Assembly: GCA_964606485.1 (NCBI GenBank)
Contig: CAZSGP010000004.1
Coordinates: forward strand, 230,376-294,375
DNA: 64,000 bases
Origin: an uncultured Planctomycetia bacterium
GTDB lineage: Bacteria; Omnitrophota; Gorgyraeia; 2-02-FULL-51-18
Direction of reading: 5' to 3'
The notes under the pieces are model-generated. The model was not told where the DNA came from and did not search any database. It saw only the letters and a list, made by a program, of their open reading frames with translations. Made by a program: the position numbers and the translations under genes. Shown here one piece after another: positions 38 through 62,964 of this stretch (the stretch's first letter is position 1; the number at the start of each line of letters is the position of its first letter).

Positions 38-3000
38 ATGGGTAAACGTTTAGTGTTGAAAAAAGATATCGATCTCACCATCAACAAGCTCAATGAAATC
101 GGACGCGCCGCGGCTTCGGAATCAAGTCTTAAACGTTTCAGCGAAGGATTTGAAAAGCTCTCCCAGAAAAACAAACAAAAATTGGTTTTAGAAATTATTC
201 GTAAGATTCAGGAAAACAAGATGAGTGAGTACGTCGAGCTTAAGCTTGGAACCGATCTTGTTATGGGTATGGGCTTTGTGGTTAAGCAAGGCCGTGGTGA
301 AAGACTGAAGGTCTCCGATGCTCGCAAGGCCATTGCTAAAGATATTTTGAAAATGGAAGCCGCTTTGTACAAGGCCTTAACGATGCAGGACAAAACACTT
401 AATAAAGCGGTGGAACTGAATAAAGTCGCGCAAAGTATGCTGAAGAGTGTGGAGCAAATGGACATCTCTTCTATGGAGAAAGCTGCTAAAGAATTGTACA
501 AGATGCAAGATGGAATTAGCGAAAAGGATAAGAAAGAGTTGGATGAGCCAGATCCGACGGCGCCTGAGCAATGGTATAAAAAATATGAAAAAGCATTTTT
601 GGTTCAATACGTTCATCGAATTAAAGTTTTAAAAGAAAAAATCGATCAGGCTAAGGACTCCGATAAGACATCTCTTGAAGTGGAGCTGAGACAGCGCATT
701 CAAAAATTAAAAGTGACGCTACAGGAGTTTGAAGTCAAACAAAAATCCATTGAAGCGCTGGCTAAGTCGCCCAAATCGGCATGGATCAGTGCTTTGGGAA
801 CCGATAAGTTTAAAGCACTTGAAAAAGCGTATGCTGAGTTCCTCAAAGCAAAAGCGTCCGATAAAACTGAGAAGAGTCAAAAAATAAAAGAGACGAGAGC
901 GTGGGATGCGTTAGTTAAGGAGTTGTCCACACCTGATGCGAAGACCCAGAAATCTCTTACGGATTTTGCATCTGACATGGGTCTCATTGCAGATAAAGAC
1001 AAAGTAGACAGTGAGACCTTGGTCGAAATCTTTAAAATGATTGGTTCTATGCCTGACGAAGGCTTCCAGGAATTTTTAGCGCCAAATAAAAAATTAGCGC
1101 TCTACTACCAGAAAGAAGTAAACAAGCTTGAGACTGGCCTTAAGAAAGATTATGAGGCGAGTGAAGGCTTGGATATGCAGAAGCAATCTCCTGAACGTTT
1201 GAAAATTTTAGCGGAGAGAGTAAAGATCGCTTCAGAGAAAGGAAAAACCATGAGTTTTGCTGAAGCATGGGTTTACGCTAAAGAAATTTTTAAATACTCG
1301 ATTGTTGATCAAGACAAAGCCACTAAAGATTTCATTCATGGGCAGCATGATTACCGCGCCGAGCAAGAACTGATGATTCTAGGTCTTTTGGAAGGTCATA
1401 ACGTGGCCTTAGGAACCGGCGCAGGCAAAACCAATGTATTTTATATTTATCACATGATCCAGCGCTTTATACAGGGCGAGGCTTATCGCGGCAAACTCTT
1501 GGTGGAAAATGAGGACGCGATTCGAAATTATGCTGCCGAGGTCGTCGATGGAGTTACAACTGCCAATAACCGCGACACACAGATGACGATTTGGTATATG
1601 CAAAAAACTTCGGGCCTATATTTGTTCGATGGCCATAAATCCTTTTCCAACAAATCCGGCGACCGCTCAGACGTGATCGAGGCCCATAAAGATTCCAATA
1701 AACTCGTGATCATTAATTACATCAGCAACGTGCATTTGCTCAATGAAGCGGCCAAGGACGCTCAACGCGGAAAGCCGGAGCTGTGGAATGCTATGAAAGA
1801 GACGAATACGTATTCCCTCGACGAATTCCATAAATTCTTAAAGAGCAAAGAATCAGGAATGATCGCTGAAAATCTTCGCTCGGTGGATCTGCCACATGTG
1901 ATCAACGTGCTCAATGTGATCAATGCGATTGCGGATTTAAAAGCGGATGGCAGTTTTGGCGTGCGCAATGTTGTAAAAGAGTTCAAAGGGTCTAAAAAAT
2001 ACGAGGACTACGTCGCTGAGTCCAAGTCACGGCTCGGAAAAGATAAATCCGAAATTTTCTACAATCCGGAAACAACTGAGGTGTATTTGAGCGAGGCCAT
2101 GCGCCAAAACCTGGAAAAGAAGGGTTTTAGTTCCGGTATGGTGAGTTCAGTGGTTCGTGCCCTCATGGCCAAAGTAGGGTATCACTACTCCACGCATTTT
2201 GACGCCAAGACTAGCCAAGAGGTGATCGTGCCCGTTAGTCCTGAGGGGGGTAAGAGTGAAGAGTCTAGTTTCCAAGATACGAATTATCAAATTGCCTTAG
2301 CGCTGCGTGCATCCCGCGGGGATGTGATGTCGGCTCAGCGCATGGCACGTAAGAGCGATACGTCGATGTCGAGTGCCATTGCACAGAGTATTCGCATTAA
2401 TGCGCGTGCCAGCGTAGTGGGTGGTTCCGGCACACTGCAAGGGCTCGAAGGGTTGCAGAACTATCAAGTGGGTTCTCGTATTTTAAATATTTCCGGTTCT
2501 CGTCTGGATGAAGGCCGAGTAGCCAATGACCACATTTTTGAGGGAGCCGAAGGCGAGAAAAAGATTCTCGAAAAAATTAATAAATCTTTAACGGACGGTA
2601 TCAGTGTTTTGGTGGCAGTTAGCGCTAAAGAATTTAAAACCTTTGAAAAATATAAAAATGGAAAAAATGATTTATTTAACGGTTATGACGTAGTCACTCT
2701 CGACAAAGATACCACCGAAAAAGAACTCGATAATATTATTAAAGATCCGTGGGCTAAGGGTCCGGGAGGCGTTAGAAAGCCACGCGTGATTTTAATTTCC
2801 GAAAGAGGATGGACGGGACGCGATTACAAACAACTCGAAAAAGCGGCCGATAAACTAACCGACGAAGCTATTACGAAGCAATCTTTGCACCAGGTTGTGA
2901 TTGGCGCTCAAGATATAGCCGCGTCTGACTTTATCCAGCTGCTCGGTCGTGTGGGCCGTAACAATTCGGAGCTTACCGCAGAAAGATTTTTCCAGGTAAA

Positions 3001-6000
3001 CGGTGAGGCACTTTCCGACCGTCTCTCAAACTTAAAAAATGATCAGGTTCGCAACGATTTCCGAAATAAACTGATCATGCGCTATGCCGAAAGCCCGGGT
3101 GAAGTTGGCGAAGTGCTTAAACTTTTGAATGCATACGAAAAGGCTGAGGGAGATATCAGTAAATTAAGCCCTTCAGAAGCCCTTCGTTTAAATGCTCACT
3201 TTATCGAAATGGATGTGAACATATCCGAAGGTGCGCGTTATTCCATTCGCGACAATGCGCGTAACGAAATTGAAATTAAACCGATCCGAGATTCTTTATT
3301 CGAATTGGGCGAAGGGACGGTAGGTTACGAGCGCGCGTCCCTTGCCCAGCAGAAATTATTCGACAGCCACAGTGATTCGGCGGATCTTGAGATGAAACAG
3401 CGTGAGTTCGGAACCGGCGAAGAAATGGCTCTAGGCACGGTGCGTCAGTCGGTGAGAAATGCGCGCGTGCAATGGGAAGGCATCTTCTCTTTTAGAAAAA
3501 CCGGCGAAACAACCTGGCAGGCGATTCGTTCGGGAAGCATGTGGAATGGTGTTAAATTTGTATTGCGCTCGTTCTCTCCGCTTCGCCCACTCCACATTCG
3601 GAGCAACATGAAATTTTTATTCATTGCGGCGCGGACGGTCACTCAACTGCGGGCTAAGGAAGCAGAGCTGCTTCCCGGAAATAGCGAAACAATCGTCGCC
3701 AAACATAGGCTTGCGCGTTTTAACGGGACGTCCGCAGCTTCACTGCGAAAATTAAATTCCAATAGTGTTTCTGATATCGTTGATAATTTGGTTGAAAGTT
3801 CGCTCGCGTTGGCGGAGCGCGATATCATCAAATCGCACCAGAATTCCAATCCATTTAAAGGTGAAATCCGTAATGCCACCGTCCATATCCGCATGGAAGC
3901 CCGCGGCCGACAGGCGAAAGAAGAAGTAGTCAACGACCAGACCGTGAAAGCGGAAGTCGTTAGCCGCACCGGCGAAGGATTTTTCATGAAATTCGACAAG
4001 TTTAACAAAATTGAAAATCTCGGCGCTGGCTGGCAGCTCATGGTGATTCCACAAGCGAGTGGAGTGCCATTGATTCAGCTTTTTAACCCGAATGATACCG
4101 AAGCCACGCCAGTTTATATGACGTTCGGTGACGACGAAACGATGAAAGCGCTTTTTGCGGGATTAACGAGTATCAGTAAAGGCAGCGTCAATATCAGCAA
4201 CGAAATCACGACGATATCTTTTGCACCGGTCAATAACGAATTTCACAACAAAACGACACTTCACCAAATTTTCCGCCAAACGGGTTTTGGTTCAAATGCC
4301 CAAGCGGGAATTGGTATTGTCGGAGCGGCGCTGGGTTTAAAAAATTTGGATCACCGCAGTGAAAATATTTCCGTCGAACAATTGGCGGCTCAAATGAACA
4401 ACGCTAAAGACGGAACGCTCGTTGCCCCTAGCGACGTGATTTCCCGTGTGGTTGACGCGATCAGTCTCGCGCATAAGCTGACGCGCTCAGTTCAGGATGA
4501 CAGGTCTTTCATTACGCTTACTGAAAAAGAGAAAGCAATGTCGCTTAATCCTGTGGTTGCGCAAAATCTTGCGGTATTGGCAAGCCATAATTTTAATTTT
4601 GCGGGTCTTGGGAATTTAGGGGAGGTGGCACTGGCTCTCAAGTTTGTGGACCCTTCACTTCAGCCAGCGGATCAGATGACAACCCTACAAAATCTAAGAG
4701 CGGCAAGAATGATATCCGACAGCACCTATTCTTATTTGAATTTGGTTTATCAGAATAATCCCTTAGATGCTCGTTCCAAAATTGATGAGTCGATTCATCA
4801 AAGTGTCGAATTTGCCCGGGTGAACGCAGAAATTAATCAATTTAACCGCAAGGAACAAAAGACCGTTCAGGTTGCAACAACTGAAAACGACAAGGCATCC
4901 AAAGCATTAAAAGAAAAACAAAAATTACTTGGTTCGAGGAATGCCTATCGTGCGGCCGGCTTATTGGTAGGCCTTGTCGGCAAGGTAAACCAAGACCGCG
5001 CCATGGATTATCTGTCCGGAGACGTCGATGCAAGCGTGGTGCCGGACAACGCGCGTGGCCGCGAGGGTCAAGTTTTTGCCGTCAATCCATGGATGAGAGA
5101 CGACATAAAGAAGTATGAAGTGGCGCCTGTGAGTATCCCCACTCAAAACACATGGGCGCGCTCAATCAAAAATGGACTTATCCGAGCCGCCAAAGGTCTG
5201 TTTGCTGCGGCTATTCTCAACCGGTCTGGGCTTCTGAGCTTTATTGAGAAACTAAGGGCACCAGGCGAGTTTGTGGCGGATTGGCTAAATAGCTTTAATG
5301 ACCGCTGGACGGTTTCAGGAGTTTCAACTTCACAGCAGATCGCAAGACAAGGATTATACAAATCCGTCGATAAGGCATTTATGAAATCACATGGTGGCAG
5401 CCAAGTAGCAAACGTTCTTGCCAAAGCACTGGTCAAGGCGGACGAAAATAGTGAGCTTAAACAAGGAACATTGCGCTACTACTATGGAGAAGACGCAAAG
5501 TCCGGCTATGCCAATGGCGGAGCGGTGGGCGCGGTGCGAAAAATTCTGGATGAAGAAGATAAATCTCAGTTTAAACCGGACCTCATGGAGGCTAGAGACA
5601 CTGACTTGGCGTTGGTCTCGATGTCATACCCCGAAATCGGAACTAGAAAGAATCTAGATCGTTTGATCGCGAGCGCTAAAGCCCTAAACACTCAGATCAA
5701 AGACCTTGCGTTCATAGACAATAAAAATTTAAATGACAGCGCCGCCGCATTTGCGGTTGATAATGACTTAACGCTGTCTGAGCTCAGCAAGCTTCAGAAG
5801 CTTCTGTCTCAAAAAGACAAGATTAAAAATTTAGAAGATCTTCAACGGGCTTTGGCTCAAGCAGATTTACTGGGCGACCGCTTCTTAGGTCTTTCACTCA
5901 TGATGCTTGGCGCCTTTTCTAAGGAGGATCTAACAAATTTCCGTAAAACCGCCTTACCACACGAAAAAGATGGTATTGAAGGCCGACCGCTGGATGAGCT

Positions 6001-9000
6001 AGAAAAAGTTGGAAAGCGCATTCGCATGAAATTTAGTCTTCAAGCGGAAAACGACCAAAACCTAGCGCTGAATATGAATTTAAAACAAGCGGTGGAAGAG
6101 GCGGTCAAAGAACCTTTTGATGAAGTAAAAGCCAAGGTTGATGCTCTCGTTCTAAAAGCAAAATCATCCGCGCCGCAGGAGGCGATTACGATTCTTCAAA
6201 AAGCCCTTTCTGAAAGAGCGGGCGATAGGCTTCTAGCCAATAGTACGGATCTTAAGACGCTTCTCAGTCAGGCTTATCTGCAATTGGCTGCTACCCAAAC
6301 GGGAATTGAGAAAGCGCGTAGCTTGGAAAAAGCATTTCAGTACGACCAAAGCCAAACCCCACTTAAAAATCAAATTGCCGATCTTTACATCGATGCTGCC
6401 AAGGCTTTGTCGAGCGACCGTTCCCCACAAGCGTTGATTCGCTTGTATCACTACTTGCGCATTGCCAATGGTTATGACCGCAGAACAGGTGACGGTGCTA
6501 TGGCAAATGCAAAGAAAGATGCAATTACCGCTGAGAAAGCTCTCTTAGAGGATGTGGAAATCCTGAGGTCTCAAAATAAAATTGTAGAATCTCTCGCACA
6601 GCTTTTACCTCTTATCGTCGAGATCGATGGTCTTCAAAGCCAGAACCGCGAGCTAGTTGAAATTTTTGCCAAAATATTTGACGTTTATCATTCGCCTTCC
6701 ATCGAGGAAATCGTTAAAGAAGCGCAGTTGCCTAGCGACAAAGATGCAATGGATCGTTACAAAACAAGACTGCTAACGCTCTACTATAATCTTTACGGTC
6801 AGGGTCTTAGCGAAAACGAGCTAGATGCAGAAAATCTAAAAGCTAAAAATGGTTACAAACCCGATCCCAACAAACGACTGGAGCGTTATAAAGCGGTAGT
6901 GAGTGCGGCTCGCGACACCGACGAACAATTTTTTGAAGATGGGTCCTCCGAAATTGAAGCGATGATGAACCAAAAGACAAAGCCTTCGTTTACGGCCACA
7001 TCCTTGAGTTTATCTAAGGAAGATGCCCAAAGAATAAAATATGCCCGCACACTTGTTTCGAAGGCGGTTGATCAACTTTTGGCGGAAACAAATAAAGGGG
7101 TCCCGCCCAAACAGCAGATTCAAATGGATATCAAAGACCGCTCGCATATTATTGCAGCCGTGGCCCAAAATATTGCGCAAGGATCGGTGCGCTTAACGGA
7201 ATCGCAACCCGGCTTAGAATCTTTTAAAGAAATGCAGGACGTCTCGATTGTGAAGAGGACATTGAGCCAGGATTTTAAAGACTACATCCATATTCTTAAA
7301 TCTAAAGAAGGTGTCGAACCTGAGTCCGATAAATTAAAAGAAGCACGTTCCATTGAGAAAAAAGTGAAAGACAAATTCAAAGAATGGGCCGTTGCGGCAG
7401 GAATTGATCCGGCGACGCTACGGGATTTCAAAGTGCAGTTTGCCAAAAAGAGTGTTCTGAAAGGTACTACAAAACTTAAGAATTCGGATGGCGCTTATCT
7501 CGAAGGCGTGGGTGTTTTAGTTATCCCGACTGACGAAGACGGCCGCGTAGAGAATCTATCTGCGGGGCTCATTGCACATGAAGGATTGCATGCAACCGCG
7601 TTTGACTTCGCACAACACGATATGCGCGAAAGCATTGTCACCTACGTTGCGTCCGTTATTGCTGCAGAGTTGGGTGATTCTTACGGGTCGATCAAACAGA
7701 TGCGTTATTACGACCGTGCGCAAACCACACTTCAAAAATGGTTTGCGGCTTCCGGAATGTCCCGTGAAAAATATGCGGCTAAACTTTTCAAGGCCTCTGT
7801 CACCGGTAGCTTTGATGAGCTTGGAATTTATGGTATCCAGGAAATCTACGAGAGATTAAAAGCGCGCGGTGTTGAATTTGTCACTATTGAAGGAAAGCGT
7901 GTTCGTTTGTCTAGCGTGCAAAAAGCATTTAAGGGAGAAAATTTTGATAAACCAGACACTTTGCCGGTATTCGTACGGCTTGGCGAAAGGGATGGTGGCT
8001 ATGAGTTGTTGCCGACTCCTGGGGAGACAACCTTAAACGGACGTCTTAGAGAGCTCGCTTCAAAGGCAGACCGCGCAGTAGATGTTTTAGAAACGGAAAG
8101 AGCGCAAACGCGCATCTTTATTTCAAAAGTATTTCCACATTTTATTGAAAACTATCGTGAGGGGCGTGCCACTGCGCACGACGAACAAAAAGTACTTCAT
8201 CTAGCCTATAAGATTAGTGAAGAGCTAGGCCGGCGTATTGCCAGGCTCTTAGAGCTTAAGGATAGGGTCGGAACATCAGAAAATGAATCCAAGGTGACAG
8301 ACGTATTAATTTCACTGAACGATCAATACTTGGCACCACTGGGCCTTCATGCGAACGCCGAATTTGAAGGTAATACGGGCTTGTTCTTCTTTAACGGTTT
8401 TGAGATTTCGAAAGTCATTGAAGGTGAGCGAGAAAACGAAGCGGCTCCGACCTTTATCGTGACAGATTTAGATATCACCGAAAACCGTAGCCGCAACAAC
8501 GCCGTGAATCGCGAAGAAGAGCGCTCGGTGACGATCTACCGCAATAGCGTTGCTCGTTGGGTTGATAACGAGTTCTACGCAACCTCTAGCGGCGAAAAAG
8601 CTGAAGTGTTGGCGGTGCTGGGTGCGGATCTTGCGGCCTTTAAAGAAGGGCGTCCGGGGACAAAATTTGGCTTAACCGATACTGGTAGAATTCAAATTAA
8701 TGATTTATACCGCACAAGTGATGAGTTTCCGCACGTTGCTAAAATTATTCAAGAATTCAATCAGGACCTTTGGCAGAACCCGATTTACGCTGGCACACGG
8801 CGCGTAGAAAATCCGGAATCAATTATCACCGATCCTGAATTACGCAATAGCGTGGTTTCAAAATTGGGCGAGCTACTGGAAAAATCAATGCGCCAAAGCA
8901 GCGCAGAAAAGAAAATTTTCAGTCAAAGTCCAGCTACCGCCAAAGACAAGACCATCATCGACATTTTACGCTACGGGGCGGAGGTAGATTTACGCGTGCA

Positions 9001-10561
9001 CGAACTTCGTCATAAACTTGATTCACGGTATTTGGTTCAGGGTAAAGGCAAACGCAGCCAGGTCTATACCACTTTGGAAGAGCGTGAATATGTTGCTCAT
9101 TTAGAAGAGTTTGCCAATCCCGAAATGCGCGATGCTTTGGCATTTGCAATTATCAAGCTGTATGCATTGGTTGAGAAGGGTACGTCCGGCCTTGGGTACA
9201 CCAAGACAGGTGCTAAGATTTTCAAAGATTTAGTCGGGTCCAATTACCGTTTACTGATGCAAAACAATAAGGAAGAGCTTCTTTCGACGCTAGAGAAGAT
9301 CGGAAAAATTTCTCCGAAGGATTTACAACTTTTAGCGATGAAGTTGCAAATGAGTGACGACCGAAAGAAAGAAAATGAATCGCACGGCGATAAAGAAATC
9401 ACAAAGCTTGCCTCAGAGCGATACGAACGCGAATTGGTTGATCTTGAAAAGAAAGCGGCAGGCGGATCGGGTTCTGGTGGGCAAGACGAATCAGTGCCAG
9501 CGCCGTTTGTGGTGCGACAATTAAATAGCGGCGTTACCCCTGTCGGCAATTTACCGGTCGACGACAAGACAAAGACCGCCGCCCGCCTCGCTACCTCACC
9601 ACTACCTTCGCCAATGGGTGCAAGATTCGCCATTGCGCCAGAGTCATTAGATCTAAACCAAGACATCGATGTGATTTTCCCCGACATGCTCAAGGCCAAT
9701 GGCGTTGAAACAAACAACGATAACGGAAAACGTTTGGTGGCGGCACTTGTTGAAATTCGCGGATTGCTCAACGAAGAAATCGATCCGCTTGTTCCATCCA
9801 AATTTGACGAAGAATTAGCGGCCCAGAAAAAATTGGCTGATGAAGCCTTGAACCTCATGGCTCCGGCTATGGCCTCTGCGATCTCCGGTGCGCTGGAAGC
9901 TTATGTGAACGCCAAAGCCATCACACGCGTGATGGAAGCAAACGGGACCGTTCGCGCGGCGGCTAAAGTGTTGCCGGCCAAAGCATTCATAACTGACAAA
10001 GGTTTCGATGCCGTAGCTGCGCAAACCATTCATATGATTGCGGGACGCGAATCAACCGGCGGGAAAAATAATTTAGCAGATACGCTGGTTCTTTATGCGG
10101 ATAAAAATGCTCCCATTGAACCGATTAAACAAGCCCTAACCGAAGTGGGGTTAGGCTGGGTGAAACTCGAAGCCGTCGACATGAGTGGAAATGTGATGGA
10201 ACAGCTGAGCACGCGCATTCCACAGATTAAAGAAAGTGCGAACATTATATTTAACGAAAGCGACAGCGCTGGTTTCATGGATGCCATTACGAACAGCGCA
10301 GACGGGGTTAAGTTTGTGGCCACTCCTCAGTCTGTCAATGCGAAGCTGAATGCTGGCTCTCAGCTCGTGCTGGCCTTCCTTGCCAAAAAGAAACTGACCG
10401 GACTCCGTGTCCCGGGGCAGGCCTCGCTTTACCAGAACGCAGCTCTAGAGAAGCTCCTTGGCAATGCCTCGCTTGCCGAATGGTTCAACGTGCCTCTTGA
10501 AATCTTCAAACTCGTCGCCCAAGCCATGGCCTCCCGCCTGGCAACCGCCAAATCCGCCTAA
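38..10561 (+). CDS. Giant multidomain protein, at least 3507 aa and probably 5'-truncated at the window edge (frame is open from nt 2, no RBS or signal peptide at the first ATG). Contains an SF2 helicase/ATPase-like motif set and an HExxH motif.
   Basis: Uninterrupted 10.5-kb ORF in the provided track. I read Walker A-like GTGAGKT at 1412-1432, DEFH (motif II-like) at 1820-1831, ISERGWTGRD (motif V-like) at 2795-2824, QLLGRVGRN (motif VI-like) at 2936-2962 and HEGLH at 7577-7591. Stop TAA at 10559-10561 is followed by a hairpin. Confidence 0.8.
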   Translation: MGKRLVLKKDIDLTINKLNEIGRAAASESSLKRFSEGFEKLSQKNKQKLVLEIIRKIQENKMSEYVELKLGTDLVMGMGFVVKQGRGERLKVSDARKAIAKDILKMEAALYKALTMQDKTLNKAVELNKVAQSMLKSVEQMDISSMEKAAKELYKMQDGISEKDKKELDEPDPTAPEQWYKKYEKAFLVQYVHRIKVLKEKIDQAKDSDKTSLEVELRQRIQKLKVTLQEFEVKQKSIEALAKSPKSAWISALGTDKFKALEKAYAEFLKAKASDKTEKSQKIKETRAWDALVKELSTPDAKTQKSLTDFASDMGLIADKDKVDSETLVEIFKMIGSMPDEGFQEFLAPNKKLALYYQKEVNKLETGLKKDYEASEGLDMQKQSPERLKILAERVKIASEKGKTMSFAEAWVYAKEIFKYSIVDQDKATKDFIHGQHDYRAEQELMILGLLEGHNVALGTGAGKTNVFYIYHMIQRFIQGEAYRGKLLVENEDAIRNYAAEVVDGVTTANNRDTQMTIWYMQKTSGLYLFDGHKSFSNKSGDRSDVIEAHKDSNKLVIINYISNVHLLNEAAKDAQRGKPELWNAMKETNTYSLDEFHKFLKSKESGMIAENLRSVDLPHVINVLNVINAIADLKADGSFGVRNVVKEFKGSKKYEDYVAESKSRLGKDKSEIFYNPETTEVYLSEAMRQNLEKKGFSSGMVSSVVRALMAKVGYHYSTHFDAKTSQEVIVPVSPEGGKSEESSFQDTNYQIALALRASRGDVMSAQRMARKSDTSMSSAIAQSIRINARASVVGGSGTLQGLEGLQNYQVGSRILNISGSRLDEGRVANDHIFEGAEGEKKILEKINKSLTDGISVLVAVSAKEFKTFEKYKNGKNDLFNGYDVVTLDKDTTEKELDNIIKDPWAKGPGGVRKPRVILISERGWTGRDYKQLEKAADKLTDEAITKQSLHQVVIGAQDIAASDFIQLLGRVGRNNSELTAERFFQVNGEALSDRLSNLKNDQVRNDFRNKLIMRYAESPGEVGEVLKLLNAYEKAEGDISKLSPSEALRLNAHFIEMDVNISEGARYSIRDNARNEIEIKPIRDSLFELGEGTVGYERASLAQQKLFDSHSDSADLEMKQREFGTGEEMALGTVRQSVRNARVQWEGIFSFRKTGETTWQAIRSGSMWNGVKFVLRSFSPLRPLHIRSNMKFLFIAARTVTQLRAKEAELLPGNSETIVAKHRLARFNGTSAASLRKLNSNSVSDIVDNLVESSLALAERDIIKSHQNSNPFKGEIRNATVHIRMEARGRQAKEEVVNDQTVKAEVVSRTGEGFFMKFDKFNKIENLGAGWQLMVIPQASGVPLIQLFNPNDTEATPVYMTFGDDETMKALFAGLTSISKGSVNISNEITTISFAPVNNEFHNKTTLHQIFRQTGFGSNAQAGIGIVGAALGLKNLDHRSENISVEQLAAQMNNAKDGTLVAPSDVISRVVDAISLAHKLTRSVQDDRSFITLTEKEKAMSLNPVVAQNLAVLASHNFNFAGLGNLGEVALALKFVDPSLQPADQMTTLQNLRAARMISDSTYSYLNLVYQNNPLDARSKIDESIHQSVEFARVNAEINQFNRKEQKTVQVATTENDKASKALKEKQKLLGSRNAYRAAGLLVGLVGKVNQDRAMDYLSGDVDASVVPDNARGREGQVFAVNPWMRDDIKKYEVAPVSIPTQNTWARSIKNGLIRAAKGLFAAAILNRSGLLSFIEKLRAPGEFVADWLNSFNDRWTVSGVSTSQQIARQGLYKSVDKAFMKSHGGSQVANVLAKALVKADENSELKQGTLRYYYGEDAKSGYANGGAVGAVRKILDEEDKSQFKPDLMEARDTDLALVSMSYPEIGTRKNLDRLIASAKALNTQIKDLAFIDNKNLNDSAAAFAVDNDLTLSELSKLQKLLSQKDKIKNLEDLQRALAQADLLGDRFLGLSLMMLGAFSKEDLTNFRKTALPHEKDGIEGRPLDELEKVGKRIRMKFSLQAENDQNLALNMNLKQAVEEAVKEPFDEVKAKVDALVLKAKSSAPQEAITILQKALSERAGDRLLANSTDLKTLLSQAYLQLAATQTGIEKARSLEKAFQYDQSQTPLKNQIADLYIDAAKALSSDRSPQALIRLYHYLRIANGYDRRTGDGAMANAKKDAITAEKALLEDVEILRSQNKIVESLAQLLPLIVEIDGLQSQNRELVEIFAKIFDVYHSPSIEEIVKEAQLPSDKDAMDRYKTRLLTLYYNLYGQGLSENELDAENLKAKNGYKPDPNKRLERYKAVVSAARDTDEQFFEDGSSEIEAMMNQKTKPSFTATSLSLSKEDAQRIKYARTLVSKAVDQLLAETNKGVPPKQQIQMDIKDRSHIIAAVAQNIAQGSVRLTESQPGLESFKEMQDVSIVKRTLSQDFKDYIHILKSKEGVEPESDKLKEARSIEKKVKDKFKEWAVAAGIDPATLRDFKVQFAKKSVLKGTTKLKNSDGAYLEGVGVLVIPTDEDGRVENLSAGLIAHEGLHATAFDFAQHDMRESIVTYVASVIAAELGDSYGSIKQMRYYDRAQTTLQKWFAASGMSREKYAAKLFKASVTGSFDELGIYGIQEIYERLKARGVEFVTIEGKRVRLSSVQKAFKGENFDKPDTLPVFVRLGERDGGYELLPTPGETTLNGRLRELASKADRAVDVLETERAQTRIFISKVFPHFIENYREGRATAHDEQKVLHLAYKISEELGRRIARLLELKDRVGTSENESKVTDVLISLNDQYLAPLGLHANAEFEGNTGLFFFNGFEISKVIEGERENEAAPTFIVTDLDITENRSRNNAVNREEERSVTIYRNSVARWVDNEFYATSSGEKAEVLAVLGADLAAFKEGRPGTKFGLTDTGRIQINDLYRTSDEFPHVAKIIQEFNQDLWQNPIYAGTRRVENPESIITDPELRNSVVSKLGELLEKSMRQSSAEKKIFSQSPATAKDKTIIDILRYGAEVDLRVHELRHKLDSRYLVQGKGKRSQVYTTLEEREYVAHLEEFANPEMRDALAFAIIKLYALVEKGTSGLGYTKTGAKIFKDLVGSNYRLLMQNNKEELLSTLEKIGKISPKDLQLLAMKLQMSDDRKKENESHGDKEITKLASERYERELVDLEKKAAGGSGSGGQDESVPAPFVVRQLNSGVTPVGNLPVDDKTKTAARLATSPLPSPMGARFAIAPESLDLNQDIDVIFPDMLKANGVETNNDNGKRLVAALVEIRGLLNEEIDPLVPSKFDEELAAQKKLADEALNLMAPAMASAISGALEAYVNAKAITRVMEANGTVRAAAKVLPAKAFITDKGFDAVAAQTIHMIAGRESTGGKNNLADTLVLYADKNAPIEPIKQALTEVGLGWVKLEAVDMSGNVMEQLSTRIPQIKESANIIFNESDSAGFMDAITNSADGVKFVATPQSVNAKLNAGSQLVLAFLAKKKLTGLRVPGQASLYQNAALEKLLGNASLAEWFNVPLEIFKLVAQAMASRLATAKSA
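1412..2962 (+). other. SF2 (DEAD/DExH- or SecA-like) ATPase core motif set inside giant ORF1
   Basis: Order and wording of motifs I (ALGTGAGKT), II (DEFH), V (SERGWTGRD) and VI (QLLGRVGRN) match SF2 helicase conserved motifs. The ~330-aa spacing between motifs II and V implies a large insertion. Confidence 0.45.
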
Positions 10562-10607: not shown

Positions 10608-10652
10608 AACCTAGTATGCATCCCGGAAGCATACTAGGTTATCCGGTTTATT
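10608..10652 (+). terminator. Candidate intrinsic terminator after giant ORF1
   Basis: Perfect 12-bp inverted repeat aacctagtatgc / gcatactaggtt (10608-10619 and 10629-10640) with a 9-nt loop, followed by atccggTTTaTT. It lies 47 nt after the TAA stop. Confidence 0.45.
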
Positions 10653-10718: not shown

Positions 10719-10747
10719 TTGTAAAGCCCATTTCCGTCGTGTATACT
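10719..10747 (+). promoter_or_regulatory. Candidate sigma70-like promoter for giant ORF2
   Basis: TTGTAA (10719-10724), 17-nt spacer, TATACT (10742-10747), in the AT-rich 269-bp spacer about 85 nt upstream of the TTG start. Confidence 0.35.
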
Positions 10748-10830: not shown

Positions 10831-13800
10831 TTGAACGATATTAAATCGCTAGACAATATCGTGGTTCAAGAAAAAAAATTCCGTTCCAATTTTGGAATCG
10901 GACTGCGGAGTATTTCCGCACTGCTCGTGCTCACCTTTGTGTTCCAAGAATTTTCTCACGCGCAAGGCGGAACACCCATGTGGTCTGCGGTGACCGATGC
11001 GCGCCAAGCACAAAAATTAGATCCGTCCAAACTTTCCCAGATCACCATTCCCGTTGACTCAGGCCTCACGCGTAAAGCGGTTGCAAAGTCCGGCCAAGAC
11101 GTCATCATCAACATTCAAGACGCTCACTCGAAACTGGGCGCTCAAGAAAGCATTTCGAACATACTTGATAATCTAGTTTCGAATTACAATTTAAATCTCA
11201 TTGCCTTAGAAGGTGCAACCGATCTTGTCGACACGTCGCTCGTTTCCAGTTTCCCGATTGAAGAAGTCCGCCAGAAGACAGGCCGCTACCTATTAAAGGA
11301 AGGCAAGATCTCGGCGGGTGAGTTTTACTCCATGATTAGCGCCAAAAACGTCAAGCTCTACGGCGTGGACGACGCAAGTCTCTACAAAGAAAATCTCGAT
11401 GTGTTCCGCGCTTTGGCTGATCAAAAGAAAGTAGTTCGCGAAGAATTAAAAAATCTTTCGCAAACGCTTAAAACCCTCGAGAGCAAAGTTTACCACTCAG
11501 AACTTTTAGAAATGACTCAGAAACGTCTTCTCCAGCGCAATGGGGACATCAAGTTCACGCAGTACTGGGAGCATTTTAGCGGTTTAGCCAAGTCGCACCA
11601 GGTGGATTACTCGAAGTATGTGAATCTTAAAAAATTGTCCGACACGGTTAGTTTGGAAAAGGAAATTGATTTCCGCGCGGCGGGCTTAGAACGCGACGCT
11701 CTCGTCAACGAGCTCGGCAAAAAATTAGGCAAGCAAGATTTAGAGAAGCTTGTTCTCGAAGCACTTCAGTTTAAACAAAATAAAATTACGCCCGGCGCGT
11801 TTCACGCAGACTTAGCCGCACTTGCGAAGTCCGCTAACATTGATCCATCCGAATACAAAAACGTTATTTTGTACGCCCAGTACGTGGTGCTCTACGAAAG
11901 CATTGACCTTATTGCCATTTTTGACGAAGTCGAAGCATTTGAAAATGAATTAAAGTCAGCGCTGTTTGTAAATGATGACGAAAGAGCGCTGTCGGATCTG
12001 TCACACTGCGTTCGGATTTTAAGCCAACTGCTCGATACGGTTTTATCTAGCAAAGATTATGAGTTTTATCAGGAACACCGCAATGCCTGCGAAATTTCGA
12101 AAATTGAAGCCACGCTCAGCGCGCTGAATCAAAAATACAACGTATCCGGATCGCGTGTGAATTTTTCAACGCTCAAAGCGTCGATTCCCGATGCTCAAAA
12201 GTTTTACGAACTCGCAAACCGCCGCAACAAGGCGCTGATGGAAAATACACTCAAGCGCATGAAAGAACAAAACGTTCACGTGGCCGCACTCGTCACCGGA
12301 GGTTTTCACTCTGAAGGCATTGCGGAGCTGCTGGACCAAGAAAAATTATCGTACTTGGTCGTCATGCCCAAGTTCGACGAAAAATCTCCCGACCGTCCTT
12401 ACATTGCAATTTTGACACAGAAACCCAGAGAGTACGAAGAAGCGTTTAAGGATTCGGATTTTTATTTGGCGGCCCAGCCGTTATTTGATATTGCACGGTT
12501 TTCTTCCGTAGGTGATCGCAGGGAGTTAGCACGTGTGCTGGGTGGCGTGATCGGTGTGTCGAAGAAAATTTTAGGTTTAGGACAACTCGATGCCGAAACT
12601 GTTCAAAAAGCCGTGGAAAATTATCAAACAAGAGTGTCGGCGCTTCCCGCGGGAATCACGCCTGTTGTTTCGGTGGACGATTGGAAAACTATTCTCACCA
12701 CCACCAAAGTGGCCAAGCAAGGCGACCGTTATGTGGTCAGTGTTGACGGCGCCGAATACGTTTATGGATTAAGCGACGACGCCAAAGAAATCACCGACAT
12801 TCAAAAAGTCACGTCCGGCTCGGCACGCACGACAATTAATTTAGAAATTGCAGAAAGCGCCAAAAAAACTTTTTCGGAATTAAACGCGACTGACGAAGCG
12901 AAAATTATTTCCCGCGTGGTGGAGGCTCTTGCAGTTCGCGCCCAATCCGAAACCATTACCGAAGAACAAATTAGAGCCAAGATTATTCCGATTAGCCGTG
13001 CGGCGAATGTGACGCTTGATCCCGCTGCGCAAGAAAACATTGTCAAAGCCGCTGCGGCGCTTTTGGCACAAATGTCACCGGTGGAAAAACCCATTTCAAG
13101 GCCGGCAATCAAATTAAAAGCGCCGGAAGCTCCGGTGACTGTATTAAAAACAGCACTAACGAGTCCGGTTGCAAAACCCGCGCCTTTTGAAACTCTTTCC
13201 GTAGAGCAGGGGTCAAGATTCGCTTCTCTGGGTAAATGGTTTCACGCAGCAGTTCTCATTGTCTCTGGATTTATTGCCGGATGCGTGGGCGGTTCGAGCA
13301 CGGTGAGTGTGACGCCATTTATTACTGATTTTGGAAGTGGTCAAGTACTCAATAAAAATAAAGATGCTTTTCTTGTCATAAAACTTCCGCACGATATTAA
13401 AAGACTTCAACAATTATCGGTCACGGGGGCGGATGGAAAGCAATATCTAAACTTTATGTTCCGGAACACAACCGGTTCCAACTCCATGATCAGCTCGGTT
13501 CTTTTAAGCGAGGTAGCGGACCTGAACCATCCTAGTTTTGCGGCGGGCATTGATCTTTCGAAAGGAAAGCCCACGGTGGATGACTTTGGAACGGCGCGGA
13601 TTCCGGGTAATTACACGGTTGCTTATGCCACCGGAACTCAAGAAATCATTTTTTCGGAAGTAGAAATTAATTCTTTTACTCAACCTCTGCCTTCGCTGCC
13701 AACACCTCCCGGATCTGTTTTTGTAAAAATCGAGGATAGTGATTTAGATGGCGTGATCAACACATTCCACGACAAGACACATTTTATTAGCCAAAATTTA

Positions 13801-16800
13801 GTCCAAAACGCTGACGCGGGTTTGCAAACCGAGTACATCAGCGTGAATGGAACGACGCGCGATAGTTATTCCTCGGTGGGCGACCTCGCTCTTAATGATT
13901 ATGTTTTAGAAACGAATTTGACTGCACTTGCGGTTCAACAGCCTCTTCCGCCTACAGGCGAACAAAACGAAGGCGTCTATTCGGTTCGGTTTAGAACATT
14001 GGACGGAGATTTGTTTTCGGAGTGGGTTTCAGTGCCGGCGACTTTTACCGTTGGCGCAGGTTTATTTAACGATACTCCGAAATTGCCGACTCCAAACGCT
14101 ACTATTCTTTCAGATCCTCGAAATGCCGATGGCAACGGAGAGGGCGACCTTCCTTTTAATAGTGCGGATCTAGCGGCGTATCAAAATACGGATGACGTAA
14201 ACATTATTTTTGTAAATTCAGATGCTCCTCAAAATTTAACAACACGCACGTTAAGAACCAAAGTTTCCGGGATTACATCTAACAACAATGTGATTTCAGC
14301 GGATTTGACACAGCTCAGTCCACGCGGCGGCACCGCTGAGGCCGGAACGTGGAAAATTTATCTTCAAATCAATAGCCAAGGCGCCAAAACCGGAATTTTG
14401 GAAACTGGGAAAACATTTGTTGTTTTGCCGGGAAAATTCAGCAATACCCCGCGCCTTACGGCACTTTCAAGCAGTTTTTCTACTTCGGCGGATGATTCTG
14501 ACCGCGACGCACTCGCTCTTTTAGGATTTCTGGTTTCCGAAGCCGCTAATTTTTCAGATACGGCTAATTTAGACATTCGTTGGACACATGTGAACGGCGC
14601 TCAGCGTCAAATGGTCGTGATCGGCGCGAAAAACGCAATCACCGTGAATCACGGATTTTTAGAATCCAATCTGACACTGCTTCCGCTTGTTTCCGGTTCT
14701 CCGGAAACGACGGGCACCTGGACTTTGTCTATGCGGTTAGTGGACCAGGGTCAAACGTCCCCATTTTTAGTGACCGGAAAAATAATCGATGTGGACGTGT
14801 TTACAGACAATCCAAAACTAACCGCCGCACCGGCCGATACCATCACCGAGCTTCGCGATGACGATTCGGACGCGCTTATTCAGACGGTTATTCGCACGAA
14901 TGCAATTGCGGCAAACTCGAGTCTTGAAATTTGGTGGGAAGAAGCCACTAGTCACTCCATAAGACAGCAAATTGTGTCGAGTGCCGCTATCACCGCGAAC
15001 AGTGGTTTTATTAATTCAGATTTAATTCAGATGCCGGTGATTTCGGGCCCCGTAGCAACAATTGGAGATTGGAGCCCCCGTCAGTTTAGAGTGATTTCAG
15101 CGGGTGCGACTTCTCAATTCACCACGTCTTCGGTTCCTACGGTGAATGTGAATAGTTTTAGCGCAAATCCCAAACTGTCTGATTTACCCAGCGGCTCGGT
15201 CGTGTCGATCGATAATCCCGACGAAGACATTGTGGGCGTCGTGAACTTTAATGCCACCACTCTTGTTTCCAATGGCGCGCAAGCGACGGATGATGTTGAA
15301 CTTCAGTTTAGAAGTGTTACTGGCAACGACATTATCAGCCAGTTTAATAAAGTTTCCGATATTCAACGCTTAACCGGCATTCAAGTTGATCTTTCGAGCG
15401 GCACAATTATTTCGGGGTCTGCCGGCATCGGACAGTACCGTCTGTTTATTCGCCGCGTGGGAAGAGGTTCTATTTCTGGATTCAGCGATACGGGTCTTAT
15501 CTTTACCGTGAATCATACGACGGATGTTGCACCTGCCGGTTCACGACTTGGAAGTTTTGCTTTCTGGAAAACCATTTTTTCAGCGCTGACCAGCCTTTCT
15601 ATTTTTTCAGGACTTTCCATCATTGGTTGTGCGTGCGGTTCTTCCGGCGGAGGTTCAAACGCGTCAGGGCCATCTGTTTTCACAGCAAAGAGCATAAAAC
15701 ACAAAGAAGAAGCGAGTATTCTGGCGGGCCAATCGGCTGTCGGACTTTCACCGGATCACGATGCGCTGATTCCGGTTCGCAAAGACGCTGCCGGCCAAAT
15801 GATTTACGAGAATCCTTTTACCGGAATTCTTTACCAAGATTCTGATTTGCAAAATCCTTCAGTGGCTTACGGACCAAGCCAATGGAATAAGGTCTACTCG
15901 AGTCTTCTTACGAATGGCATGGCCCATGAACAATCTTTACGCGGCAATACAAGCGTCATGCTGTATCTCGATCCGAATAATTTTGGCACGACGGCGAATG
16001 ACGACGCCGTATTTAATCAATTTAAACTCGACGTCGCTACACTCGACCAGCAGGAGAATATCAAAACGGCGGTGATGAACTGGGCAGGTCTCTATGCTCA
16101 GGAAAATGGACAATTTTTACTGAATAATCCCACTCAAGCCAACAAAGACATCCTCAAAGCGCGCGTGCGGAAATTTGCGCAAGTTTTAAAAGATGTGGCG
16201 CCGTCAGTTGCGTTCGTCGTGCTTGGCAATGAGAACGCCTATTATGTCGAAGGACCGAACGGCGAGCATGCTTATCAGAACCCGGCACTCTTTTTTGGAG
16301 GCAAGATAGATAACACCATTCGCATGACACCGGCTGACTACTATAAATTTATGGTGGAACTGGCGCAGGAGTTTAAGAGTGTGAATCCGGATGTTCGTCT
16401 CGGGTTTGGACACGGCGTCATCGAGGCCCAGCAGGTCGATCAAATGAGAGCGGCCGGCATTCCGAGCGTGTATGACTTTTTAGCGCTCAATCTTTATCCG
16501 GTGGACGTGATTAATCCCGATGGCAATGACGGTTCCATCAACGGTCTTTTCCAAGGCTATCGCGGGAGCATAGAGTTTGCGACACAACTCAAAATGCCTT
16601 ACATCCTAAAAGAATTCGGCAAATCAAACGCAGTGATCGGCCAAGCAGCACAAGGCAATTTTATTCGCGCGGCAATCTCGGCTTTGCTGGGCGGGTTTGC
16701 CTATCATGGAAAACTTTTTCCTCAGCAAAATGCCGGCAACACCCACGCGCTTTTGGGTGTTTATGTGGTTGAAGCTCTGCGTCAGCGCTGGAAAGATCAA

Positions 16801-19800
16801 GAAATCCGACAAGGCGAGTCGGGCCTAGGTCTCTACGCCAAAAATGTGAGCGGTACGGCTGTGACGTTTACGCCCACTCAAGGGGTAACCTTTTTGGATC
16901 AATCTTATAATGCGGCAATTGCCAACTTCAATGATCCCAAACGTTTACTGGCCGATGGCGCGGTGAGTCAGCCAGGTCTAAACGGTTCCTTTTATTCTTA
17001 CGCAGACGGACGTTTTGATTTGAAAGAAACACAAACCTTAGAAATAAAAGTACCGACGAACCAAGCTGGAAATCAATGTGTGGTTCGTATTTTGCCACCC
17101 AGCGCCAATCCAGAATCGCCCGTCGGCTTAGTAGGCCAAGGAACGGTTTTCACGGTGCCGTCCAATGGCATTATTTCCGTGACCTTGAACTCTTCTGAAC
17201 GAATCGATGCAATTCAGATCAGCGTTCATTCCGGTCAAGCTGCCTGGGGACAAACGTTCCGTGCTGGTAACGGAGCTGTGACGATTATCAATATTACGGG
17301 CGGCGCACGCCTTTCAGTTAATTTCAAGAGTCTTCTCTCGGCCGAAGATAAAACCGCTATTCAATCGGTACTCGATCAGCTCATCAACACACCGCTTAAA
17401 GAAATTTTTGGAGTCGATAAAGCTCTAGCGAAAGAGGCAACGCGCGGGCTTTTTAGTGTACGTGTCATGGATTTATCGATGAAGAGTTTGGAAGACGCCA
17501 TGACACAGAGCCCCGCTCAATTAGAAGCCGACTTACAAAAGTTACTGCCAGAAACGCTTCAAGGTCTCCAATCTCAAAACAATCCGCAAGTGGTTGTGAC
17601 GGGTGAGATGGCACGAGCCTACAGAAAAAAACTGGCGCTCATGCTGGTTTCCGATGCTCAGACCAAAGACATTGTTCGTCGGTTACGAATCTATGCTTAT
17701 TATGACCATCGTGAGGAGGTGCTCGATAGAGTAGAAAGTTATCTGATTAGGGTGGAAAACCTGATCGAAAAAGTTACGGACCTCTTAGATCCCAAACAAA
17801 TGGAAAACGTTTTAGATGTATTAAGAACTATTCAAAGACAATCTGGAGATTCCGGGGAATTTGCTGTGAGCTTAGAGGAGCTAAAGTGGGCGCACGAAAT
17901 TGATCCAGGCTTAAATGAATATGAAAATAATAAGCTTAGAAAATATGACGATTTGAGGAGACGGTATACAGAAGCATTTGTTAGAGCTAGCGACTATATT
18001 TTTTCTAAAATCGAGAGTTTGGAGAGCCTAACAAAGACTCCTCAAAAAGATGCCTCGGAGCTCGTGGGCATTATTAGCGCTAGTGCAGACCCTGTGCTTG
18101 AGGTCATTCAAAATTTAGAATCTCGGGGTCAAAAAGACGACGCGCAAAAATTAAAAGATGCCTTTATCCCATTATTCGAAAAGGCAGCTCGTTTTACCGG
18201 CGCGAGGCTCTCTAGCGATCAGGAAAAAAAGAAAAAATTAGAAGAAGCCGTCGCTAAGTTAAAAGCCGTGAATCACCCGACGGCCCCCGTTCAAAAAACG
18301 GCTTATCAAACGGCGCTGGATCTTGTGAATCAGAAATTTGATCAGTTGATTGTCGATGGAAAGTCGGAGCTAGAGCTTGCTGAAGAAATTATTGGCGGCA
18401 CTCCCGAGAAGCCAGTTTCTATAATGAGCGTCAGTAGCGGCGATTTAGAAAAAGTCGCCGATGCGCTTGGGCGCTCCATGCAACACTTTGGAGCTCTTAA
18501 ATCACTACCGCCTATACCCGCCAACCTTGTGTTAAATGCTGACGAAGCAGAGCGTTTAAAAAATGAAAGCCGTGCTTCAATTTCAGAAGACATGAAGCAA
18601 AATGTCCTAAGATACAAGAAGGCAAATGACGCCGTAAAACTGGAGCAAAAAATACGCGATTTAGTTACGCGTTTAAATCGCTTATCTTACGATTCCAATG
18701 AAGTCGTGAGCGGAGATGTAAAAAAACAAATTTCAATCGTGACCGACGGCGCAAGCCCCGCAGTTTTAAGTGATGCACGCGTTACCGAAGCCCTGGGCAA
18801 GGCGAATGACCGCCTGAGCCAACAAAAGAAATCAGAAACACCGGCAGCCATTGCTAAGAGACGCGTGGATGAAAAAGCTTCCCCGATTCTTACACAGGCT
18901 CTTGCGCATATCGATCGTTGGGAAAAGAGGCTGCAAAACGGAGAGATCACGAAGCTTACAGAAAAAGAGCTTGAGCAAGCTACTCAGGATCTCGAAAGTG
19001 CTCGGAAAATTTTAGAACAAGGCATTGAGATTGGCGATGAAATTGTAAAGGATTTAAGCGTCGATAAAGAGGTCCGTAAAACTTTATTAGAAAATGCTAT
19101 AAAAGAAGTTAGTTCTCAGATCGCAATCGAAAAAGCGAAAGTATATAGCCTGCTCGGTAAATTGAGGCTCAATAAAAAACCTGTTCTCGTCCGCGAGCTC
19201 TCTGACGTGATTGGTCCGGCTCTAGAAACACAATTAAAAGAGGCAAGCACGAATGCAGAACGCGTTCGCGGAAAAATCCAGGAATTAAGACAAAAATTGG
19301 ACGGCGCCAAAGCTGAGTTTCAAAAAATATTAGGCATTGAACAAGATATCGCAAACCAAACGAAACGTGTGAAAGAATTGAGCGATAAGTTAGATCAAAT
19401 TAAAGCCACTGTCGCAAAAACGGTTGGACTATTAACAAATCTTTACCAAAAAAAGCTGGAAGGCAAAAAGACTGCAGAAGGTCCGGATTTAGAGAAGATT
19501 CACGAAAAGGCGATCGAAGATCAAACTTCTACGGAAGCGACTTATGACGTTGCTAAAAAATCTTTAGAAAAATTAGTGGATGACAACCGGTCCCTCAGCA
19601 ATCGTAAAGCCGAACTCGATCTTGCTATCAAGCAGATTCCCACCGAAATTGAAAAATTAAATTTAGAACTTAAAAGATATGAAGATAAGGAAAAAAGTAT
19701 TCAAAAGGAAATTAATGATAAAAATGATATCAAAAAATTAAAAGACGAATTCGGAGCTGCGAAGGCCGAGCTAGCCAAAGCACTGGCCGCGGCGAAAGCG

Positions 19801-50634: not shown

Positions 50635-50656
50635 AACTTTACCCTTCCCGGTTCAA

Positions 50657-50690
50657 CCTGCCTGCCGGCAGGGAGCGCGGGGTTTTTTTT
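50657..50690 (+). terminator. Candidate intrinsic terminator of giant ORF2
   Basis: cctgcc(tgcc)ggcagg inverted repeat at 50657-50672, GC-rich gagcgcgggg, then T8 at 50683-50690. It lies 23 nt after the TAA stop. Confidence 0.55.
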
Positions 50691-50698
50691 GTTATAAT
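50690..50698 (+). promoter_or_regulatory. Extended -10 element (TGtTATAAT) for the TPR/VWA/GT4 operon
   Basis: tgttataat at 50690-50698 lies immediately after the terminator T-run and about 7 nt upstream of the GTG start at 50705, so the transcript may be leaderless or have a very short leader. I saw no clear -35. Confidence 0.3.
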
Positions 50699-50704
50699 AG
50701 ACGG

Positions 50705-62676: not shown

Positions 62677-62964
62677 ATGAGTAAAAATTATTACGTTTAC
62701 ATGATAACCAATAAATCTAATACGGTTATCTATGCAGGGGTCTCTAGCGATCTAAAGAAGCGAGTGTACGAGCATAAGTCGAAGCTCGTGAAAGGATTTA
62801 CGAGTAAGTATCATGTGGAAAAATTAGTCTGGTATGAAACGTGTGACGACTCCTACCAAGCCATCACTCGGGAAAGGCAGATTAAGGCGGGGTCAAGGCA
62901 GAAGAAGATCGCCTTGATCGAATCCTTTAATCCGACCTGGGAAGATTTGTATGAGAAGATCTAA
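62677..62964 (+). CDS. Small GIY-YIG nuclease-domain protein (UPF0213/COG2827-like, 95 aa)
   Basis: YYVYMITNKSNTVIYAGVSSDLKKRVYEHKS carries the GIY...YIG catalytic-core signature. Conserved R and E follow (RERQIK). Confidence 0.8.
   Translation: MSKNYYVYMITNKSNTVIYAGVSSDLKKRVYEHKSKLVKGFTSKYHVEKLVWYETCDDSYQAITRERQIKAGSRQKKIALIESFNPTWEDLYEKI

Follow-up and report, generated by a model that had tools for sequence, protein, structure and literature searches.

How bacteria make, fold and place envelope proteins of at least 10,000 residues is an open question, and the sole clue so far is that SecA-like domains are frequent in the giant genes of Omnitrophota. Giant genes are commonest in Omnitrophota, and the majority of the full-length ones encode divergent versions of the SecA DEAD and preprotein-binding domains. 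These domains are devoid of the scaffold and wing, form a long-branched clade apart from housekeeping SecA, and have been suggested to export the very giant protein that contains them (West-Roberts et al., bioRxiv 10.1101/2023.11.21.568195). A 20-protein cluster with PF07517 architecture has been described among long Omnitrophota proteins (bioRxiv 10.64898/2026.06.07.730766). Here we analyzed a stretch of 64,000 nucleotides (nt), hereafter the window, which spans positions 230,376 to 294,375 of the forward strand of contig CAZSGP010000004.1 (assembly GCA_964606485.1) from an uncultured bacterium of the GTDB lineage Omnitrophota. The window carries two neighbouring giant open reading frames (ORFs), ORF1 and ORF2. 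Residues ~427-1122 of ORF1 are probably a highly diverged SecA-type ATPase motor.

The ORF1 module fits the published SecA kind of Omnitrophota giant proteins, as matched by description. In both cases a divergent SecA DEAD and preprotein-binding-like module resides in very long proteins of Omnitrophota or the Planctomycetota-Verrucomicrobiota-Chlamydiota (PVC) group, no scaffold or wing is recognisable, and a role in giant-protein export is proposed. The locus leaves the kind of system unchanged; it is useful for the problem of mega-protein export and adds no new system type. The published domains are named Pfam SecA_DEAD and the 2026 set is defined by PF07517, whereas the ORF1 family is missed by PF07517. 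Three features are new: the family escapes the SecA hidden Markov models (HMMs) by which the published sets are defined, the motor is encoded in a gene of its own next to that of a larger giant with no motor, and fusion and synteny single out a candidate recognition module. The SecA-like motors of giant proteins now include a family missed entirely by standard HMM annotation, so surveys based on PF07517 undercount such motors.

The predicted ATPase module of ORF1

The coordinates of ORF1 and of the parts of its motor module, which comprises two RecA-like domains resembling the nucleotide-binding domains (NBD1 and NBD2) of SecA and an insert in the place occupied in SecA by the preprotein cross-linking domain (PPXD), are as follows (aa, amino acids).

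38..10561, + strand: ORF1, motor-bearing giant protein of at least 3507 aa (ORF list; frame open to the window edge)
1316..3403, + strand: SecA-like motor module, aa 427-1122, conserved family-wide (family HMM envelope on ORF1; model, Foldseek and hhalign)
1337..1852, + strand: NBD1-like RecA domain, N-terminal part, aa 434-605 (Q443, Walker A, Walker B)
1853..2350, + strand: inserted domain of ~170 aa, aa 606-771 (position of the SecA PPXD)
2351..2470, + strand: return into NBD1, with TSMSS (nt 2360-2374) and motif III GGSGT (aligned to SecA ITFQN and GMTGT)
2471..3019, + strand: NBD2-like RecA domain, aa 812-994 (motif V, motif VI, and AERFFQ at nt 2978-2995)
3020..3403, + strand: all-helical conserved region after NBD2, aa 995-1122 (helices in both structural models; ARYSIRD at nt 3233-3253)

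The original prediction had put ORF1 at more than 3500 aa, and the 3507 aa counted here are a lower bound. The frame has no stop in the 12 codons from the window edge (nt 1-37) to ATG38, which is little proof taken alone. The closest relative, P0001 (5937 aa), is colinear with ORF1 aa 221-3110 at 33% identity and extends at least 2450 residues further N-terminal of the point aligned to ORF1 aa 221. The gene may therefore be longer, with ORF1 as its C-terminal ~3500 aa.

The superfamily 2 (SF2) motifs I, II, III, V and VI occur in canonical order in ORF1. The four motifs recognized in the original prediction are all present in that order, namely GTGAGKT (Walker A; aa 459-465, nt 1412-1432), DEFH (motif II, Walker B; aa 595-598, nt 1820-1831), SERGWTGRD (motif V; aa 921-929, nt 2798-2824) and QLLGRVGRN (motif VI; aa 967-975, nt 2936-2962). 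To these we added GGSGT as the motif III equivalent (aa 795-799, nt 2420-2434).

When 1.84 billion cluster representatives were scanned exhaustively with HMMER, 26 relatives of the motor emerged, 21 of them at E<=1e-10; a word-indexed search of 5.8 billion proteins returned nothing either with ORF1 aa 400-1150 or with the family alignment. In nearly all relatives the motor domain lies deep inside the host protein, which ranges from 1200 to 7200 aa. Genomic loci were retrieved with a 3-sequence alignment, and those of three relatives belong to two metagenome-assembled genomes (MAGs) of Omnitrophota and one MAG labelled Planctomycetia. As judged from sequence comparison, the SecA-like motor family of ORF1 is a rare and very diverged but real conserved domain.

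The family alignment consists of ORF1 and 18 of the 26 relatives (19 sequences, 22-42% identity to ORF1), and the key residues of the motifs are invariant in it. These are Q443, G463/K464 in Walker A, D595/E596 in Walker B, T799 in motif III, G927 in motif V, and Q967/R971/R974 in motif VI; T465 in Walker A is nearly invariant. The only invariant columns beyond the listed motifs are L582 and P732. Because the invariant columns coincide almost entirely with the catalytic positions, the alignment argues for an active ATPase under purifying selection rather than chance motifs or decay. The motif V position aligned to R509 of E. coli SecA, which we take to be the arginine finger of SecA, is a threonine in ORF1, and there is no conserved arginine in motif V across the family. 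This substitution and the extreme sequence divergence would suit a decayed pseudo-ATPase with a purely structural scaffolding role, but invariant GK(T), DE, motif III T and Q..R..R residues across 19 sequences are the opposite of decay, and we consider such a pseudo-ATPase highly improbable.

Similarity of the motor to SecA and to helicases

The original prediction proposed an SF2 helicase or SecA-like ATPase, and the predicted structure agrees with this proposal and favors SecA. The AlphaFold2 model of ORF1 aa 420-1100, which was built from the 19-sequence alignment without templates, showed a tandem RecA-like fold with a predicted local distance difference test score (pLDDT) of 71.3 and a predicted template modelling score (pTM) of 0.59. 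When this model was compared with the PDB by Foldseek, the top 20 matches were all SecA or SecA2 (E=7.4e-11 to 1e-6), each over ~700 aligned columns. The best match was 5eul_A (7.4e-11), followed by 1tf2, 3jv2 and 4uaq. All 50 listed matches were SF2 ATPases, and those other than SecA (ISWI/Snf2, RIG-I, XPD, Hel308 and DinG) appeared from 1.5e-6 downward.

A large inserted domain had been suspected from an unusually long spacing between motifs II and V. We found this domain as the insert of ~170 aa, which forms a mixed alpha/beta fold in the model (pLDDT 65-90) and matches the SecA PPXD in location and similar size. The spacing itself is long relative to ordinary helicases but normal relative to SecA, as motifs II and V are separated by 326 aa in ORF1 vs 296 aa in E. 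coli SecA. The other distances compare likewise: 180 vs 166 aa from motif II to the ITFQN-type strand, 20 vs 14 aa from this strand to motif III, and 14 aa in both proteins from motif VI to the RF(F/Y) motif.

We compared the family profile by hhalign with a SecA/SecA2 profile of 10 sequences, comprising E. coli K-12 SecA and nine plasmid-borne genes. The two profiles aligned colinearly in a single hit over 446 columns (E=1e-9, probability 96.4%, score 89.2), in which family positions 10-564 correspond to E. coli SecA 71-596; reversed-profile controls gave E=0.44 and 0.74. The match to the single E. coli SecA sequence was in the right register and weak (E=0.017). Domain by domain, NBD1 aligned with NBD1 at E=5.6e-4 and NBD2 with NBD2 at E=1.1e-5. 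The family and E. coli SecA are in register at the following motifs (family first, E. coli SecA second).

GTGAGKT: TGEGKT
DEFHKFLKSKESGMIAEN (consensus DEVH..TSR.SAIIG): DEVDSILIDEARTPLIISG
TSMSS (family consensus TSMQT): ITFQN
GGSGT: GMTGT
ISERGWTGRDY: ATNMAGRGTDI
QLLGRVGRN: QLRGRSGRQ
AERFFQ: SRFYLS

The NBD1-like domain of ORF1 also has a SecA-type 'SKESGMIAEN' stretch after DEFH. ORF1 shares with SecA (PF07517 SecA_DEAD, PF01043 SecA_PP_bind, PF07516 SecA_SW) the best structural match, colinearity with residues 71-596 of the E. coli protein, motif order and spacings, an insert of similar size at the PPXD position, and signatures flanking motifs II, III and VI. It differs in that the motor has only ~13-18% identity to SecA and is embedded in at least 3507 aa, whereas SecA is a free protein of ~900 aa.

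Several results weigh against a SecA-type motor. The SecA models PF07517 and PF01043 missed ORF1, its sub-regions and all 19 family members, and our own SecA HMM, run with --max and thus with filters off, detected neither ORF1 nor any relative, whereas it did detect a Legionella giant protein (E=1e-52). The insert alone matched the SecA PPXD at E=0.047 by hhalign, no better than off-diagonal comparisons. A profile of five E. coli DEAD-box helicases matched the two RecA-like halves at 6.1e-5 (NBD1) and 3.8e-4, with scores of 47.5 and 41.4 that together come to the SecA score. The threonine at the R509 position and the lack of a conserved arginine in motif V point the same way. The SecA scaffold was in register at one motif, ARYSIRD vs NFDIRK, and this was not significant (E=0.26). 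A longer model of aa 420-1500 had no significant match in the PDB, and its hits did not include SecA; this model was built from 11 sequences with a pLDDT of 59.8, and we treated it as uninformative, not as evidence against SecA. Neither hhalign nor this longer model of low confidence demonstrated the SecA scaffold, wing or two-helix finger in the ORF1 family, and the helical region of aa 995-1122 may be the start of the helical scaffold.

Some of these results would suit a nucleic-acid-dependent SF2 helicase or translocase of the DEAD-box, Snf2 or XPD/DinG-like type, which would have an accessory insert and act on RNA or DNA. Pfam and NCBIfam gave no usable match on the whole of ORF1, and the only sequence-HMM matches to its sub-regions were those of Pfam to ResIII (E=0.0076, 16.6 bits against a cut-off of 22.5), DEAD (E=0.024, 14.8 bits against 26) and Helicase_C (E=0.031, 15.0 bits against 23.5), all below threshold. 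The original prediction had looked to helicase and SecA HMMs alike; the former responded at permissive thresholds, while PF07517 did not. PDB sequence searches with the protein or the family profile found only helicase fragments at E>0.1, such as an eIF4A fragment at E=1.7, and the family profile had weak matches to RecQ, NS3 and Mfd. The DEAD-box profile (PF00270, PF00271 proteins) scored each RecA-like half as well as SecA did, and XPD and DinG, which also have domain 1 insertions, were in the Foldseek list at ~1e-5.

However, the DEAD-box profile broke at the insert, whereas SecA aligned colinearly through it, and SecA-specific signatures flank motifs II, III and VI. The 20 best Foldseek matches were all SecA, 4-5 orders of magnitude better than other SF2 proteins (top 7.4e-11 vs 1.5e-6). 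DEAD-box RNA helicases belong to the same superfamily, but in them no large insert separates motif II from motif III, and they rank far lower in structure; motif II of the ORF1 family reads DEFH or DEVH, and no helicase-specific accessory domains were found. Pfam, NCBIfam and PADLOC gave no nucleic-acid-binding domain or defence-system match, and the neighbourhood consists of envelope and giant-protein genes. The nucleic-acid-directed activity offered in the original prediction as one option is therefore disfavoured, although the DEAD-box profile scores the halves about as well as SecA, and we regard a helicase as improbable.

The sequence profiles place ORF1 in the DEAD-like motor superfamily without separating SecA from helicases. 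It is the structural ranking, the position and size of the insert, the colinearity through the insert found only with SecA, and the short flanking signatures that lead us to a diverged SecA-type motor with fairly high confidence.

Linkage of the motor to ORF2 and its possible role

The larger giant gene lies downstream of ORF1 in the same orientation, with a spacer of 269 nt.

10831..50634, + strand: ORF2, giant membrane protein of 13,267 aa (ORF list), presumed partner or substrate of the motor
10903..12477, + strand: ORF2 N-terminal module, aa 25-549, found on the same polypeptide as the motor in three relatives

ORF2 has a signal-peptide-like N-terminus, FRSNFGIGLRSISALLVLTFVFQEFSHAQG, its hydrophobic segments cluster at aa ~5629-6035 and ~11182-12291, and the family HMM found no motor in it. 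With its signal-peptide-like N-terminus, many hydrophobic segments and no motor, ORF2 is a candidate substrate. Its N-terminal module has no Pfam match. A PP2C-like stretch (PF13672, E=2.8e-6) lies at aa ~5343-5475 (26857-27255), just before the first hydrophobic cluster; this is the only Pfam match of ORF2 above the gathering score, with Med9, OEP and DUF6384 below threshold.

The N-termini of three motor-bearing relatives, P0005, P0006 and P0007 (4878-7195 aa), match ORF2 aa 25-549 at E=2e-76, 1e-99 and 5e-81, respectively. These proteins carry the ORF1-type motor in the middle of the polypeptide and the ORF2-type module at the N-terminus. In the Planctomycetia-labelled MAG (locus L002), a single small gene separates the gene for a motor-bearing protein of 6868 aa from a downstream ORF2-like gene, the N-terminus of which shares 61% identity with ORF2 aa 13-193, and the gene order is as in the window. 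The fusion in three relatives and the recurring gene order are two independent observations that tie the motor to ORF2-type proteins. The motor and the signal-bearing module form a natural split-vs-fused pair, joined in one polypeptide in some genomes and encoded side by side in the window, and this pairing points to a specific candidate substrate of the motor. At ~700 aa, the motor fragment is small enough that it could be expressed and assayed against a defined N-terminal peptide.

The small gene between the motor gene and the ORF2-like gene of L002 (20674-21165) is a secreted TPM-like gene, which is not in the window spacer. Simple gene fission, by which a cytoplasmic motor would have been split from an exported partner, was considered and rejected, because the gene order misfits a simple split; the N-terminus of ORF1, which may lie outside the window, bears on this idea.

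In the proposed mechanism, ATP would bind between the two RecA-like domains, contacted by K464, D595/E596 and R971/R974, and hydrolysis-driven opening and closing would grip and advance a bound unfolded polypeptide, as in SecA. The motor would most likely help to export giant envelope proteins or insert them into the membrane, and the protein handled would be either the one that contains the motor or the neighbouring ORF2 (13,267 aa). A dedicated motor for the mega-protein was suggested in the original prediction, and fusion and synteny favor it, while the function itself, both ATPase activity and export, is predicted. For the dedicated-export role the odds appear to be about even. The SecA-type identity and this role, taken together as one reading, we hold to be somewhat better than that.

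Two results count against export. No SecY, SecE or SecG gene was found within the window. In addition, P0005-P0007 have signal-peptide-like N-termini and, in a crude hydrophobicity scan, no strongly hydrophobic segment before the motor, a topology that read literally would place the motor outside the cell. A motor in a secreted giant effector whose site of action lies beyond the producing cell, such as within a prey or host, would suit this topology, and Omnitrophota have been proposed to be predatory or host-dependent. On the other hand, the Sec pathway is unlikely to carry a folded ATPase of ~700 aa that is part of a chain several thousand residues long, and the scan is crude. The P0001-type relative has a long hydrophobic, glycine-rich region upstream of its motor, and such a region fits a membrane-anchored cytoplasmic domain. 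We give a secreted effector very little credence.

Alternatively, a SecA-derived motor could have been repurposed for a cytoplasmic job without SecYEG translocation, such as unfolding, holding or threading very long polypeptides as they assemble, or the remodelling of a complex of giant proteins on the inner face of the membrane. The structural and profile evidence for SecA ancestry fits this equally. The SecY-coupling scaffold, wing and two-helix finger were undetected here, and the literature reports their absence from giant-protein SecA-like domains; Sec channel genes are missing nearby, and the crude scan found no strongly hydrophobic segment in the part of ORF1 within the window. However, the link by fusion and synteny to a signal-peptide-like module points to export, and divergence together with a poor model, rather than true absence, may explain why the C-terminal domains of SecA went undetected. 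We think a cytoplasmic job unlikely.

A more specific form of the export reading is a self-contained auto-translocase, in which a SecA-derived motor that has lost the canonical SecY-coupling domains is built into its cargo or encoded beside it. Such a motor would recognise the ORF2-type N-terminal signal module and thread polypeptides of at least 10,000 residues into or across the membrane, in cis in the fused relatives or in trans in the window. If true, this would be an export mode distinct from those of housekeeping SecA and SecA2. We put it forward tentatively, as a possibility that falls clearly short of an even chance.

In Gram-positive bacteria, the accessory Sec system with its ATPase SecA2 handles the export of very large serine-rich-repeat glycoproteins. 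The ORF1-ORF2 locus resembles it in that a dedicated SecA paralogue would stand beside a very large surface-protein cargo, that the SecA2 structure 4uaq is among the top structural hits, and that a GT4 glycosyltransferase gene lies downstream of ORF2, as GtfA does next to secA2. SecA2 differs from ORF1 in being a free protein of ~790 aa readily detected by SecA HMMs, and no SecY2 or Asp genes were found within the window. The likeness to SecA2 is a functional analogy only.

Further features of ORF1, neighbouring genes and plasmid-borne SecA-like proteins

Two regions of ORF1 downstream of the motor are shared with its relatives.

6569..9367, + strand: second conserved block of ORF1, aa 2178-3110, common to other motor-bearing giants
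10055..10534, + strand: C-terminal domain of ORF1, aa ~3340-3499 (~160 residues), matching the extreme C-termini of motor-bearing giants

The second block contains VHELRHKLD (aa 2986-2994, nt 8993-9019; HELRH core at nt 8999-9013), which is kept in all six of the aligned motor-bearing giants (6/6) and is followed in them by a conserved E..AH and RG.SG.GY motif. HEGLH (aa 2514-2518, nt 7577-7591) is conserved only in the three closest motor-bearing giants. This HExxH-type block may be a metallopeptidase-like domain, a reading for which no HMM match was obtained. The C-terminal domain matches P0007 at E=4e-8 and P0005, P0003 and P0006 weakly, in each case up to their last residues. It is absent from ORF2, and paralogy between ORF1 and ORF2 was not detectable.

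In the spacer between the two giant genes, a perfect 12-bp inverted repeat, AACCTAGTATGC and GCATACTAGGTT with a 9-nt loop, lies at 10608-10640 just past the ORF1 stop codon, and a sigma-70-like site is located at 10719-10747 before ORF2. Because a hairpin follows ORF1 and a sigma-70-like site precedes ORF2, the two giant genes may be transcribed separately; a terminator scan of the spacer called nothing, the 12-bp hairpin included.

Downstream of ORF2 are genes for TPR, VWA, GT4 glycosyltransferase, haem biosynthesis, acyl-CoA dehydrogenase and response regulator proteins. The TPR (743 aa), VWA (572 aa) and GT4 genes overlap or abut one another at 50540-55589 directly after ORF2 and may be part of the same envelope system. 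An exact look-up in public assemblies returned no record of ORF1, and the haem biosynthesis protein HemE was recovered solely from a 4.4-kb Logan contig. PADLOC found no defence system, and Rfam had no match in the window. A 95-aa ORF (MSKNYYVYMITNKSNTVIYAGVSSDLKKRVYEHK...) at 62677-62964, after the response regulator gene, is GIY-YIG nuclease-like by eye and is followed by ~1 kb without a convincing ORF, where Rfam likewise found nothing.

The giant protein detected by our SecA HMM is encoded on a plasmid of Legionella geestiana (L015; NZ_CP041715, 13.8 kb), where record positions 453-9296 encode a hypothetical protein of ~2947 aa. Its SecA-like domain has 25% identity to E. coli SecA. Like ORF1, it is a SecA-type motor in a very long protein, here outside Omnitrophota, but the ORF1 family HMM does not detect it, and it is a separate, much less diverged acquisition. 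Plasmid hits from Methylosinus, Pontibrevibacter and Pseudosulfitobacter (H24, H25 and H27, respectively) are SecA-like over ~70% of SecA with no C-terminal domains, and their features are annotated as 'prepilin peptidase' or 'DEAD/DEAH box helicase'.

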